64,000 nt of DNA. Origin: an uncultured Hormoscilla sp. (GTDB lineage: Bacteria; Cyanobacteriota; Cyanobacteriia; Cyanobacteriales; Desertifilaceae). Numbering within the stretch: position 1 is the stretch's first letter; each line of letters starts with the position of its first letter. The position numbers were made by a program, and so were the translations under genes. The notes below the pieces were generated by a model. It had not been told where the DNA came from. It saw only the letters and a program-made list of their open reading frames with translations, and did not search any database. The stretch is from contig OZ001293.3 of NCBI GenBank assembly GCA_963921275.4, positions 864,001 to 928,000 of the forward strand. The letters run 5' to 3'. This document shows, piece after piece, positions 6,130 to 30,881 of the stretch.

Positions 6130-7068
6130 TCTATCGGGCCCATCTCACTATGAGATCAAGGTACAAGTTCTCGGGTTCGTAGTTTGGAATTCAGATCACT
6201 CAACAACTAGACCCCGTTGTATGCCAACAGTGGGTGGAGTGGGCACACTGGATCTGCGCAAAATATCAACGCACCTCTTCAGATGTGGAAGGGCGCAATG
6301 GCTATTGGTCGGGGTCGAGCTGTCTCTCGCGGGACAACCCTCCCTTTCGGAACCTGAAGAGCGACTTTCACCGCACACGGCTACTGGTTGATAGGACTTT
6401 GTCATTAGTAGCACTATCAGGATTACTCCTTACTGGCCTTGTCTCTTGAAATTTTCACCCCTTTCGGTTCGTCGTTCCCTGATGTCATTTCACGATACCT
6501 TTAGGTCCATAATATACCCCGGCAGCTTTTGAATACGATGTTAGTCAAAGACAAAAACTAACACTAGCTACATTCCCTTTTGGGCCAGCGCTTTAAGCCT
6601 TATTTCGCTGGTTTGCAGTAACGAGGCTTACTTATGTTCGCTTGTTCTAACCTTGAGTATCTTTCCTAGCGGCGTCACCGGTTTAGGCTACCAGCTATCC
6701 TACATTTAAGTCCTCGCTTGGCACCACGGCGATGTTGCTCCGTAGCACTGAGGACCGGTGTCACCCCCGTATCTGGGGGAGGGGAATTTAACCCCCATGA
6801 ACATCAGAGTTACTGGCTAATGGAACCAGTCAGGCTTTCACCAAGTTTTTGGTTTACGCCGGAACGAATCGCACTGTCCCGTCTCCATCATACCTCTCGC
6901 GGCTTGGATGCTCAAACATTAGCAGTGCTCACTGTCATCCACAATTTTGATATCAGGCGAGGGGATGGCACTACGCCAGCACAACGACTCTTTGGGCACT
7001 ATGCACGAGAACCTATTTGAGTGGGTTGTAAACCCTATGGGTGAACTCCCCCTGCTACGGCAGTCATG
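6130..7068 (+). mobile_element. DUF6399-type transposase C-terminal remnant interrupted antisense by a group II intron
   Basis: KYQRTSSDVEGRNGY | LSRLHH...HNFDIRRGDGTTPAQRLFG joins in frame when 6307-6874 is removed. Confidence 0.75.
6307..6874 (-). ncRNA. ORF-less group II intron (IIB-like), internally deleted by ~270 nt relative to the other two
   Basis: 5' GTGCGATTCG; domain V TAGCCGTGTGCGGTGAAAGTCGCTCTTCAGGTTC; domain VI ending CTCGACCCCGACC. Confidence 0.88.
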
Positions 7069-7234
7069 AATCTCAATTCATATATAATCCCTTCCTGAGA
7101 CTAAGCTACGAGGTCTATTAGAAGAAACTGGGTTTCTCGTGAGGTGCTAAAAGTTATATCAGCATCTCCTAAAAGAAACCTGGTTTCTTGAGCTACGCTC
7201 TAGCTACAGCATAACACACCACTCGTCTAGCCCT

Positions 7235-9247
7235 TTACTCCTGCTTCAACCTTTCCTGCCAAGTAGCGATCGCCTCTTTAGCCTGCTCGTATGCCTTGGT
7301 ATCTTCGGGCACCAAAGATGCCGCCGCGATCGCCGACTTAAGGGAGTTCTTGTCTGCCTGTGAATGCGCTGTGCGCACGCTACGCGACCGAGCAATTGCT
7401 AAAATATCATTGCTCCATTGATTAATCAGCTTTTGAGCAGCAAAATAATTAGGCTGACCTTGAGGGATTGAGCGGGCCAGGTCGATCGCCTGATTATAGG
7501 AAGATGCCTGGGAAGCCACAATTAATTCTTTAGCCCGGTTCAAAACTACTTGGTTAGTCCGCTGCTGTTGAGCTTGCACAGTCCAGAGAGCGATCGCATC
7601 TTCTGCTGACTGGTAGCTGTCGCTGTCAGAAGGTACCAATTTCGCTGCCGTGATCGCATCATTAAACTTGCCCATTTTCGCTCGTCCTACAGCTATATCC
7701 AGAATTGCCCGACTCCAGAATTCAATATCCTGCCGCGCTTCTGCATATAGGGGTTCTCCCGGTTTAATGGAGCGAGCCATATCGATCGCGCTACTATACT
7801 TAGAAGCTTGGTTTAAGCCGAGTGCAGTTCTCGCCTTACCCAATAGATCCCGACTTTCTCGCTCCCTGGCGGCGTCTTCCGCTCCGGTGTCCTCCGCGTA
7901 CTCTTGTCCTGAAGGACGCGGTACGCGACCGACACCGGCCGCCAATTCCACCGCCGTTGGAGCTGGTTTTGGGGGATCAATGGGAGATTCAATAGGTTGA
8001 AATGCCGGGGGTTCTGCGGGTTTTTCCGGGGGTTTTGCTGATTCTGCTGGAGGTTCAACCACTTGCAAGGGTACTTCTGATGGCGACTCGTCCGCGTAGC
8101 GTGCGCGCAGCGCATTCTGTTGCGGACTCTCAGAGACACCATCACGATCAGGTGTTGATATCAACAAGTCCTTATTTCTGAAAAACACCCCCGCGATTAA
8201 AATTATGGCTAGACCTATACTGGTAAGCATCAGCTGACGCCAAAACTGGGCATCTTCATTTTGCATTTCTTGTAGTTCTGGTTCTTCTGGCATAGGTCGC
8301 TGCGGCGTCTTCCGCTCCGGCGTCTCCCGCGTACTCTTGTCCTGAAGGTCTCGGCACGCTCCAGACACCGGACTCTTGTCCTGAAGGACGCGGTACGCTC
8401 CAGACACTGCGCCCTCATTAGAGGTCTTTGATATTGCCGGCTGATGAATGGCGGCACTCTCGGAGGGGACCGTGGTTGCGGGGCTGTCCAGAGGCAAGAT
8501 TGTTTGATTGACTTTTTCTGGAGGGGTCACCACCATTAACGGCTGCTGGCATGGTCGCATATGGCAGTCGCTTAACTCCGGTAGACGACGCCCGAGATAT
8601 TTTTCCAACCGAGCCAGGGTATTACATTGACCTGAGCGCAAACCTTCCAGAAGCGCCGCCGTAAACAATCCATGTCGCAGGTCTGAGGTTTCCTGGTCAA
8701 ACTGACCCGGTTGACAAGAGAGCAAGGTCGGAATTTCCAGCTCTCGGGCCAATTGCGAGGTCTGACTTCCCAACAGACTGCCAGATTGAAGGCTGGAGGC
8801 CCGGTTGATATCCAGCATGAGTAAAATATTGCTAGTGGGCATTTGCTTCAACCAGGCAAAGAGCGATCGCATGGATATCCCGGAGCCCTCCACATCAGCT
8901 GGGTCTCCTTCGATCGGCATCAGGTAGTCTTGGGTTTCATAACTCACCCCATAGCCACTAAAGAACCACCACAGCTGGTCCGCCGCCGTTACCGACAACC
9001 CCCCTAATTCTCCTTTCCTGCAGATATAGTCGAGCCATCCTTCTATGGTTTCCTGGTTGGGATAGGTCGATCGGCCCTCGATCGGCCCCGAGGTATCCGT
9101 CAACAGCACGCACAGGCCCGGATCCAAACCTGCTTGGTATACTCCAAAATCCCATAGGGCCTGAGCATCATGTTGTGCATAGTTCAAAGGTTGGAATACC
9201 TGATACTGATTTATTCCAGTCGCAATGATAAAAGTTTTCCCCATCAC
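7235..9247 (-). CDS. Caspase-family (C14) protein with substituted catalytic dyad, TM helix and repeated helical C-terminus
   Basis: GINQYQ..PLNYAQHDA, FFSGYG (H to Y), LDINR (C to N), HGLFTAALLEGL; several mini-element inserts in the linker. Confidence 0.85.
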   Translation of the reverse strand: MMGKTFIIATGINQYQVFQPLNYAQHDAQALWDFGVYQAGLDPGLCVLLTDTSGPIEGRSTYPNQETIEGWLDYICRKGELGGLSVTAADQLWWFFSGYGVSYETQDYLMPIEGDPADVEGSGISMRSLFAWLKQMPTSNILLMLDINRASSLQSGSLLGSQTSQLARELEIPTLLSCQPGQFDQETSDLRHGLFTAALLEGLRSGQCNTLARLEKYLGRRLPELSDCHMRPCQQPLMVVTPPEKVNQTILPLDSPATTVPSESAAIHQPAISKTSNEGAVSGAYRVLQDKSPVSGACRDLQDKSTRETPERKTPQRPMPEEPELQEMQNEDAQFWRQLMLTSIGLAIILIAGVFFRNKDLLISTPDRDGVSESPQQNALRARYADESPSEVPLQVVEPPAESAKPPEKPAEPPAFQPIESPIDPPKPAPTAVELAAGVGRVPRPSGQEYAEDTGAEDAARERESRDLLGKARTALGLNQASKYSSAIDMARSIKPGEPLYAEARQDIEFWSRAILDIAVGRAKMGKFNDAITAAKLVPSDSDSYQSAEDAIALWTVQAQQQRTNQVVLNRAKELIVASQASSYNQAIDLARSIPQGQPNYFAAQKLINQWSNDILAIARSRSVRTAHSQADKNSLKSAIAAASLVPEDTKAYEQAKEAIATWQERLKQE

Positions 9248-10013
9248 CCATCATTCCTCTAAGCTGCTGATCGATTCTATAGACTAATCATACAACTTAC
9301 AGCTCTCTCTAAGGCACTCTGCCATCCTACCCCTCCCGCATCTACGTGTTATTTTGTCGCTTTTCGTACTCGTCTTATCACTCAAATTCCTTATTTTACG
9401 TTCAAAACGCTTATTTGACTATGATTTTATTTATTTGTAAACCGTACTTTTGGAAGTAGCAAAAAAAATCTTGTGCATCGGAGAGGGTGTTTCCGGGCCC
9501 AAAGAGTCCTGGAAAAATGTCGGCGTCCACGGAAAACCTACCCTTGAGGCCAATTTTTTCCAGACTTAGGTAAAAATAGTCATAGTTAGGGTAATTTACC
9601 ACTCTATCCAGTTTATACCAAACTCGACCAAATTGCTGAAATAACGCAAGTCCGTCACCCAAAAAGGAATAATTTGCAATAATCTTGCTGGCGAACGGTG
9701 TGAATGATTGGAATATTAAAAGAAAAGTGCAGATAATGAAAAGTATAGCTTATGAATGGGGGAGCCGGTCTTGTCCCCCGTGCTAAAATTACGCTCGTCA
9801 AAGCATCTGTCCGGTGCATGCTGTGTTTGGGGGGCGATCGCTTGATCGAGGTACAAAAGGGGATCTCTTTCTTGCACGGTAGCCGACCACAACAACATCG
9901 AGTGCGAATGGCTGCGCTCCCGCAAGGATACGGCCCTTTTTGTAGGAGGAAATCGTGCTCTTTGCGCTCGTCATCAAAAGTCTTCTCCAAGGCTAAATCC
10001 AGGAGTTTCCGGC

Positions 10014-29829: not shown

Positions 29830-29990
29830 CATGAATTTCTTGATGACTTTCCTACTGTCAGTCGCGATCGGGCTATAGATGTCCTTAGCGATGGTATCTT
29901 TTCTCCAAAACTATGAAGCTGTTGCTTGACGAGTGCCTACATAAAAATTTAAACCGAGAGTTAGCGGAGCCTACCGTTATCACTGTACCA
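29830..29990 (+). pseudogene. Degenerate partial copy of the DUF433/DUF5615 junction at 33146-33310
   Basis: GACTTTCCTACTGTCAGTCGCGATCGGGC...CAAAACTATGAAGCTGTTGCTTGACGAGTGCC...ACCGTTATCACTGTACCA shared. Confidence 0.8.
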
Positions 29991-30010
29991 AAGCCAACCT
30001 ACAGGAGCCT

Positions 30011-30881
30011 GTGCGATTCGTTCTAGCCTAACGTGGTCAAACACGGAACGCTAGCCCGGTTTCATTAGCCGGGAACTCTGACCGCATGGGGGTTAAATTC
30101 CCCTCCCCCCAGGTACGGGGGTGACACCGGTCCTCGGTGCTACGAAGCGACATCATCGTGGTGCTAAGCGAGGACTCAAATGTAGGATAACTGGCAGCCT
30201 AAGCCGGTGACGCCGCTAAAAAAGATATCCAAGGTTAGAGCAGGCAAACATGTGCAAGCCTCGTTATAAGGAACCAGCGAAATAAGGCTATATGCGCTGG
30301 CCTAAAAAGGAAATGGTAGCTAGTATTAGTTTTAGACTCTGGCTAATATAGTACTCAAATAGCTCCCGGGGTATAGTGTGGACCTAAAGGTATCGCGAAA
30401 TGTTGTTAGGGAACGAAGTAACCTCTCGTGTGCTGTCCATCAGGACAAGTTAGATGTTAAGCGCAAGCCACGGGGGGAGGGATGGCCCAAGAAGCGAATG
30501 CCCGGGGTAATTCCTGGGATAACATCTACAGTAATGTAGATGATGCTGGGTAGCCAGCGCTGACGTGGGTCGGTGATACTAGGAAGCTGCTGGAATGAGT
30601 AATCCTAAAAAGCCACGGAACTAATCCGAAACGCAAGTGGAGGATAAGGTATGGATAACTGGTAAAACTGACTTGAAAATGGTGATACTAACGGTTATCA
30701 GAACAACCACTCGCTAAACCAGGAAAGGGAAGAAAAGACAGGCGGCAAGGGCTAACGGAAGTAATTCCTATTAAGTCTACCTATGAAAAGGGCCTAGTAC
30801 CCAGTAGCCGGATGCGGTGAAAATCGCAAGTCCGGTTCCTCAAGGGAGGGTCGGGAAGCGATTCCCGGCTCGACCCCATCC
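30011..30881 (+). ncRNA. ORF-less group II intron, ~871 nt
   Basis: GTGCGATTCGTT start; domain V TAGCCGGATGCGGTGAAAATCGCAAGTCCGGTTC; end CTCGACCCCATCC placed by alignment. Confidence 0.9.

Follow-up and report, generated by a model that had tools for sequence, protein, structure and literature searches.

ORF-less group II introns with site-specific guides in a 64-kb stretch of a probable Hormoscilla-type genome

How can group II introns without an open reading frame (ORF) occupy different sites of one genome, each copy carrying a guide that fits its own site? This question is raised by a 64,000-nt stretch (contig OZ001293.3, positions 864,001 to 928,000; hereafter the window) from a mesophilic, probably Hormoscilla-like filamentous cyanobacterium. 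A sequence-only reading had proposed that the window holds three homologous ORF-less introns, here copies 1 to 3, in which exon-binding site 1 (EBS1) differs from copy to copy and pairs with intron-binding site 1 (IBS1) at the end of the corresponding 5' exon. In this work, we extended that proposal by comparative analyses, and we consider it likely that the copies are diverged members of an ORF-less, subgroup IIB (chloroplast-like) family abundant in filamentous cyanobacteria of Hormoscilla type, which has been retargeted through its guides and served in trans by a reverse transcriptase (RT).

The homology among the three introns was confirmed by their alignment over the whole length (alignment A1), with identities of 75-78% in domain I, and an nhmmer search of the window with A1 returned these three copies and no others. 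All of them start with GTGCGATTCGTTC, at 6874(-), 14860(-) and 30011(+), with GTGCG at the boundary where GUGYG is expected, and end in ...GACCCCGAC or ...GACCCCAT, in agreement with the 3' AY rule. The 5' ends proposed earlier were exact; the 3' ends (6307, 14026 and 30881) proved to run 1-2 nt into the 3' exon, since Rfam limits and the alignment of domain VI (D6) place them at 6308, 14027 and 30879. Copies 2 and 3 passed the gathering score (40 bits) of Rfam model RF00029, which covers domains V and VI, with domain V (D5; AGC triad, 2-nt bulge and GNRA loop) followed by a D6 carrying the bulged A. Copy 1 yielded no match to this model even at E<=1. Two copies are complete, and copy 1 is a degenerate relic, which is 95% identical in domain I to a Hormoscilla copy (locus L007) and lacks ~372 nt (domains II-III) relative to it. 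Copy 1 is most likely a dead deletion derivative; copies 2 and 3 keep all catalytic hallmarks in their sequence and could still splice or move.

The relatives of these introns were collected in one scan of genome contigs with an invariant domain-I 18-mer, which gave at least 70 loci (designated by L numbers) and is the basis of all counts on relatives given below. Intron homology was found by nhmmer in 65 of the 70 listed loci, the 5' end of the intron being covered in 25 hits; the other five loci, which are non-cyanobacterial (L015, L020, L027, L035 and L065), showed none and were discarded as chance matches of the 18-mer. After removal of two redundant loci (L062, identical to L008, and L025, orthologous to L039) and of hits without the intron 5' end, which were left out of the exon pairing, the window and other cyanobacteria together contributed 26 non-redundant copies, and every domain-I column was scanned against every 5'-exon position. 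A close family of 16 rows, namely the 3 window copies and 13 Hormoscilla copies, was considered separately.

The loop chosen by the sequence-only reading is EBS1. Its coordinates and its pair counts (6/6, 5/6 and 5/6) were reproduced exactly, the three hexamers share the same alignment columns, and each scores highest with its own exon (own/cross values of 5/2/4, 2/5/4 and 4/4/6), the joint chance of 6/6, at least 5/6 and at least 5/6 at a fixed register being ~2.6e-6. The top-ranked pairing of the column-by-position scan was that of the EBS1 loop with exon positions -5 to -1, with 104 of 130 cells paired, while the maxima obtained with shuffled exons averaged 79.7 and peaked at 87, none of 200 reaching 104. 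A lack of covariation between loop and exon across many copies had been named beforehand as an outcome that would refute the proposal; over the 26 copies, covariation is strongly positive. In an alignment with relatives (A2), 77.6% of the cells of the IBS1-EBS1 helix are paired, and 6/6 pairs show changes on both sides; the corresponding values for the stem of the EBS1 hairpin are 70.7% and 7/7. Pairing in the A2 structure as a whole amounts to 73.9%, compared to 48.9% after shuffling (0/500) and 40-50% after sliding, and the observed pairing or covariation was attained by no shuffle of the 500. Within the close family, at least 5/6 EBS1 pairs are formed in 13/16 copies and 6/6 in 9/16, with a mean of 5.38 pairs for cognate exons versus 2.66 for non-cognate ones. 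Ten distant A2 sequences were misregistered by one column at EBS1, and a shift of +/-2 brought 9/10 of them to at least 5/6, a lenient measure given its flexible register.

The hairpins predicted to carry EBS1 in their terminal loops have weak energy z-scores (-0.24, -0.47 and -2.16); the assignment follows from covariation, not from folding energy. RNAalifold on A2 recovered an enclosing stem (columns 391-396/528-533), which contains EBS2, a conserved CCAGCG hairpin and the EBS1 hairpin, as well as the CCAGCG hairpin itself. The stem of the EBS1 hairpin was not recovered by RNAalifold on A2, owing to an offset of 1-2 columns in the distant sequences, and it was therefore assessed by counting column pairs. 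Such an arrangement is in keeping with the distal part of subdomain ID of IIB introns.

EBS1 is accompanied by two further guides, so that retargeting by EBS1, as originally proposed, stood, and retargeting by EBS1 alone did not, since EBS2 and EBS2a also vary between copies. The second-best site of the unbiased scan in the close family was EBS2 against exon positions -13 to -9, with 66/80 cells paired, a null maximum of 58 and 0/200 shuffles reaching the observed value. EBS2 consists of 5 nt (A2 columns 402-406) directly 5' of the invariant AACCAGCG. EBS2a, a single nucleotide, precedes the start of EBS2 by two positions, with a conserved A in between, and pairs with exon position -14; this pair is Watson-Crick in 12/16 close-family copies, occurring as four types (U-A, C-G, A-U and G-C), and its score was reached by 5/20000 shuffles. 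In all three window copies it is U-A. A separate EBS2-IBS2 pairing of ~5 nt and an EBS2a-IBS2a pair at -14 are both features of subgroup IIB. In EcI5, EBS2a-IBS2a was shown to be required for DNA targeting and dispensable for splicing (Monachello et al., 2021, PMC8643678), and its covariation in an ORF-less family, by analogy with that role, argues for selection on mobility.

Other positions of the target are fixed. At the first nucleotide of the 3' exon (+1, IBS3), 13/14 copies have C and copy 2 has T, a constancy that leaves no room for covariation of EBS3-IBS3. A is preferred at -15 (11/14 copies) and at -8 (10/14), and recognition of the fixed positions +1, -8 and -15 may fall to a constant EBS3 and a shared protein. 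Changes between close copies are concentrated in the guides: copy 1 and L007, whose flanks are unrelated, differ at 23/403 domain-I columns, and 8 of these differences fall in the 16 guide columns (P ~3e-7), a concentration that reads as a signature of retargeting.

Among the matches listed, the closest relatives of the window introns are at least 13 ORF-less copies of 886-1354 nt in Hormoscilla metagenome-assembled genomes (MAGs), and nhmmer comparisons of the copies with one another and with Hormoscilla loci gave 172-968 bits. Two 999-nt family copies within one Hormoscilla MAG (L013 2790-3788 and L021 2790-3788) are 100% identical over 1003 nt and have unrelated flanks, which points to recent movement. 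Their sites are imperfect, with EBS1 5/6 and EBS2 2/5 at one and EBS1 4/6 and EBS2 4/5 at the other (L021), and this looks like a recent, partly ectopic transposition. Nesting also occurs: in twintron L033 3229-5178, a family copy (3956-4959) is inserted in another family copy, and in twintron L067 2025-5421, an RT-bearing intron has its RT ORF interrupted by an ORF-less member of the family at 3228-4221. With ORF-less copies at different sites bearing cognate guides, the earlier proposal of a non-autonomous family with a diversified guide loop appears well founded. Two observations on individual relatives may be added. Members of different subfamilies (L014 ~3050-3085 and L033 ~4900-4935) show the same 3-nt change, GGA -> TCC, in the 5' strand of D5, the 3' strand being unchanged and three pairs lost in each. 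Further, an RT-bearing relative (L054 3811, -) pairs 6/6 at EBS1-IBS1, yet starts with CTGCG instead of GTGCG; if this base is real, the first splicing step would be blocked.

The intron family has no RT of its own in the window, as had been stated. No RT was found by Pfam on 34 window ORFs (32 of the 61 ORFs of at least 110 aa, and 2 short ones), and tblastn of 8 related RTs against the six window frames gave a best E of 0.036, inside coaBC. Copies 1-3 (567-869 nt) likewise have no RT/maturase ORF in domain IV by Pfam or tblastn. A 10-residue tblastn stretch in the window introns was rejected as an ORF remnant, being D5 in translation. RT homologues occur in 46/70 listed loci; the four RTs checked by Pfam carry RVT_N, RVT_1, GIIM and HNH, and the RT of L060 (Hormoscilla sp. 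GM7CHS1pb) has PDB 6me0 chain C as its best match (E 2.5e-117), an entry described as the Thermosynechococcus elongatus (T. elongatus) Th.e.I3/T.el4h ribonucleoprotein (PMC8643678); this match is the one pointer to an IIB1 or IIB2 (CL1 or CL2) assignment. At L060, an intact intron ORF for a 601-aa RT/maturase/HNH protein (26-1828) is accompanied by two ORF-less derivatives (~4161-4808 and ~5086-5681) that retain RT residues 1-48 and ~565-601 as remnants with 100% identity and by sequence make up a lineage of recent ORF deletion, separate from the window family. When the window introns were compared to 8 RT-bearing introns by blastn, domain I (60-66%) and D5 were matched, and nothing else. Seven RT/maturase clusters (P0027, P0033, P0042, P0048, P0050, P0054 and P0085; 522-596 aa), most with RT, maturase and HNH domains, are 63-68% identical to the L060 RT. 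The longest contig of these clusters measures 6,879,066 bp, the size of the contig bearing the window's own protein; judging from this equality, the window's replicon very probably encodes several candidate driver RTs outside the window.

Table 1. Coordinates of the window introns, their guides and their targets (WC, Watson-Crick; GU, G-U pair; DII-DIII, domains II-III).
Feature	Position	Strand	Remarks
Copy 1	6308-6874	-	Intergenic degenerate derivative, 567 nt; domain I intact; DII-DIII missing
Copy 1 domain V remnant	6351-6382	-	AGC triad and GAAA loop kept; 3/8 lower-helix pairs broken
Copy 1 EBS1	6548-6553	-	TGTCTT; loop 6546-6556; IBS1 GGGACA 6875-6880; 6/6 (4 WC + 2 GU)
Copy 1 EBS2	6614-6618	-	CTGCA; IBS2 6883-6887; 4/5
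Copy 1 EBS2a	6620	-	T; IBS2a A 6888
Copy 2	14027-14860	-	Complete ORF-less group II intron, 834 nt
Copy 2 D5-D6	14027-14104	-	RF00029 47 bits, model positions 1-77; intact
Copy 2 EBS1	14534-14539	-	TGCACT; loop 14532-14542; IBS1 CGTGTA 14861-14866; 5/6 (4 WC + 1 GU)
Copy 2 EBS2	14602-14606	-	TCTAG; IBS2 14869-14873; 4/5
Copy 2 EBS2a	14608	-	T; IBS2a A 14874
Copy 3	30011-30879	+	Complete ORF-less group II intron, 869 nt, intergenic; GTGCG, RF00029, A1
Copy 3 5' target flank	29997-30010	+	Order: IBS2a, IBS2, 2-nt spacer, IBS1
Copy 3 IBS1	30005-30010	+	GAGCCT; pairs with EBS1 5/6 (5 WC, one internal C/A mismatch)
Copy 3 EBS2a	30265	+	T; IBS2a A 29997
Copy 3 EBS2	30267-30271	+	TAAGG; IBS2 29998-30002; 3/5
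Copy 3 EBS1	30334-30339	+	AGACTC; terminal loop 30331-30341; hairpin 30324-30348
Copy 3 D5-D6	30803-30879	+	RF00029 44.4 bits; intact
Copy 3 IBS3	30880	+	C
Copy 3 neighbour, EAL-domain gene	28274-29596	+	
Copy 3 neighbour, ORF	30923-31438	-	

As to the surroundings of the introns, the window is of bacterial and not of organellar origin. Pfam assigns to it a KaiB-domain (SasA-like) histidine kinase, DUF4079, CoaBC, HisG, an AcrB-type pump, PIN toxins and a DDE transposase; there is one tRNA, and the G+C content is ~47%. Copy 2 sits at the 3' end of an ORF with an eCIS_core/DUF4157 domain (14817-16748, -), whose reading frame extends 14 codons into the intron; in silico removal of copy 2, judged by eye, would bring a stop 8 codons past the junction. 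The last 244 residues of this ORF matched only themselves in a set of 5.8 billion proteins (1 hit among 1537 candidates). Directly upstream of the same ORF, two overlapping tandem arrays (370 bp x 2.4, 98% matches, and 291 bp x 2.4, 96%) cover 16816-18096. A dispersed repeat of ~35-55 nt, partly within ORFs, is found at 7893-7924, 8318-8407, 10010-10059 and 13140-13210, and also in a Hormoscilla locus (L030). Matches of 24 nt to Rfam CRISPR-DR28 (window 44000-44023 and 62510-62533, below gathering; L018 1472-1495, 36.6 bits) are single units, not arrays, and probably represent another short dispersed repeat. Outside the introns, window regions 48763-49927 and 50184-50608 are 78-80% identical to one Hormoscilla MAG locus (L063) and 91% identical over 446 nt to another (L001). 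These regions are the strongest indication of the window's taxonomic surroundings; together with the intron relatives and short dispersed repeats, they make a Hormoscilla-like source probable.

In the explanation that we favor, each copy would recognise its insertion site by RNA-DNA pairing through EBS1, EBS2 and EBS2a; a mutation in a guide would then allow the intron RNA to reverse-splice into a matching site, giving rise to a new copy. As an intron without an ORF must receive RT, maturase and endonuclease in trans, these activities would be supplied by group II introns with an RT at other sites of the genome. Several findings weigh against this explanation. The RT-bearing relatives are distant (49-58% identity over aligned domain-I columns and 60-66% in the high-scoring pairs of blastn), and among the matches listed (70 loci) there is no close ORF-bearing intron, so that the search for an ORF-containing parent with a matching domain IVa, suggested at the outset, came back empty. 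No N- or C-terminal ORF remnants were detected in the window copies by tblastn; domains II-IV showed, in comparison to the L060 and L067 intron parts, a D5 match only, with no domain IV similarity to the resident RT-bearing lineage; and the tie between the seven RT clusters and the window's replicon consists of an equal contig size only. Three of the 16 close-family copies (L050, the outer intron of L033, and L021) form only 4/6 EBS1 pairs, and the window copies fit their sites moderately (EBS1 5/6, 5/6 and 6/6; EBS2 3/5, 4/5 and 4/5). Finally, with a mutual identity of 75-78% the copies are old, and may therefore be immobile relics.

This last point leads to a reading that we regard as a substantial possibility, somewhat below an even one: all three window copies would be inert fossils, with guide matches left over from old retrohoming. 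Such a fate would agree with the loss of DII-DIII and the broken D5 of copy 1, with the divergence of the copies, with the partial EBS2 matches and the internal EBS1 mismatch of copy 3, with the intergenic position of copies 1 and 3, which removes selection for splicing, and with the damaged D5 of relatives (L007, L014 and the inner intron of L033). However, copies 2 and 3 pass the D5-D6 gathering score and still have the GTGCG start, the bulged A and a 3' AY, EBS2a-IBS2a is Watson-Crick in all three copies, and the identity of L013 and L021 reveals very recent movement among relatives. EBS1-IBS1 pairing is also required for splicing, and copy 2 overlaps the end of an ORF; hence, complementarity might have been kept for splicing only, guides and exons having co-evolved in place with no prior retargeting. 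We consider this very improbable, because at least 13 family copies lie at unrelated sites with cognate guides, most of them intergenic, identical copies occupy two sites, the differences between copy 1 and L007 cluster in the guides amid unrelated flanks, and EBS2a-IBS2a, mobility-specific according to the EcI5 study (PMC8643678), covaries. A chance or artefactual origin of the group II likeness or of the pairing, for which the unremarkable z-scores of the hairpins could be cited, is refuted for practical purposes by the Rfam gathering scores, the nhmmer scores of 172-968 bits and the covariation values, reached by 0/500 and 0/200 shuffles.

If the favored explanation, an ORF-less family mobilised in trans, is taken further, the family could be an old, self-sustaining non-autonomous lineage that lives off the RT/maturase of resident introns from a clearly different lineage, an idea we advance tentatively and hold to be rather unlikely. 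The family comprises two subfamilies, 59-75% identical in domain I, and the EBS2a covariation suggests that such cross-lineage parasitism would still be under selection. If true, it would be a bacterial counterpart of the relationship between short and long interspersed nuclear elements (SINE/LINE), beyond the recent deletion derivatives of T. elongatus.

The introns of T. elongatus are the closest known system (Mohr, Ghanem & Lambowitz, 2010, PMC2882425). This genome has 28 introns, 17 of them ORF-less, in six families defined by EBS1, EBS2 and EBS3; they are mostly intergenic, often nested, and were experimentally mobilised in trans by intron-encoded proteins. A survey reports large expansions of chloroplast-like (CL-type) and ORF-less introns in Cyanobacteriota (PMC8919778). 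The window family shares with T. elongatus TeI3 (ORF-less) and TeI4 (RT-bearing) a cyanobacterial host and the IIB architecture, and, more generally, the presence of many ORF-less copies whose EBS groups match their own sites, a mostly intergenic location (one T. elongatus copy is close to a gene's 3' end, PMC2882425) and twintrons, here those of the relatives L033 and L067. The T. elongatus RT has RT, X and En domains, and the Hormoscilla protein at L060 is most similar to the T. elongatus structure named above. The ORF-less introns of T. elongatus keep N- and C-terminal ORF remnants, and share a deletion breakpoint with a close RT-bearing parent (PMC2882425); the window family lacks remnants, and has no such parent among the matches listed, whereas both features are present in the Hormoscilla lineage of L060. 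IBS3 is constant in the window family (C in 13/14), while T. elongatus families also differ in EBS3 (PMC2882425). Moreover, trans mobilisation is experimental in that thermophile and is here inferred from sequence for a mesophilic host.

Other comparisons concern single traits. As in EcI5 and other IIB1/IIB2 introns, a 5-bp EBS2-IBS2 pairing is combined with a single Watson-Crick pair between target position -14 and a nucleotide close upstream of EBS2, and EcI5, unlike the window family, encodes its own RT (Monachello et al., 2021, PMC8643678). The L060 derivatives likewise are group II introns that lack an ORF, and occur in a genome of similar kind; they adjoin an intact RT-bearing copy, belong to its lineage, and share with the window family D5 similarity only. 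The Trichodesmium twintron (PMC4649490) and organellar and Euglena introns (PMC2882425) resemble the window family in lacking ORFs, in nesting and in the dependence on an RT/maturase in trans that is proposed here; these introns interrupt expressed genes and must splice, whereas two of the three window copies are intergenic. A literature search yielded no paper joining Hormoscilla with group II introns, and one on EBS1 and retrohoming in ORF-less introns of cyanobacteria turned up general works only. Thus, this particular family seems to be undescribed in the literature searched, while the kind of retroelement family to which it belongs is already well known, matching the T. elongatus paradigm.

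The current picture of group II introns is therefore unchanged by these findings, which add a mesophilic, probably Hormoscilla-type case to the short list of bacteria in which ORF-less introns have multiplied while changing their guides. The family raises the question of which resident RT drives introns that have no close ORF-bearing parent. Across at least 16 copies, it offers a natural retargeting series for EBS1, EBS2 and EBS2a, and multiplication through changing guides serves as a model for the spread of introns that predated the common splicing machinery.

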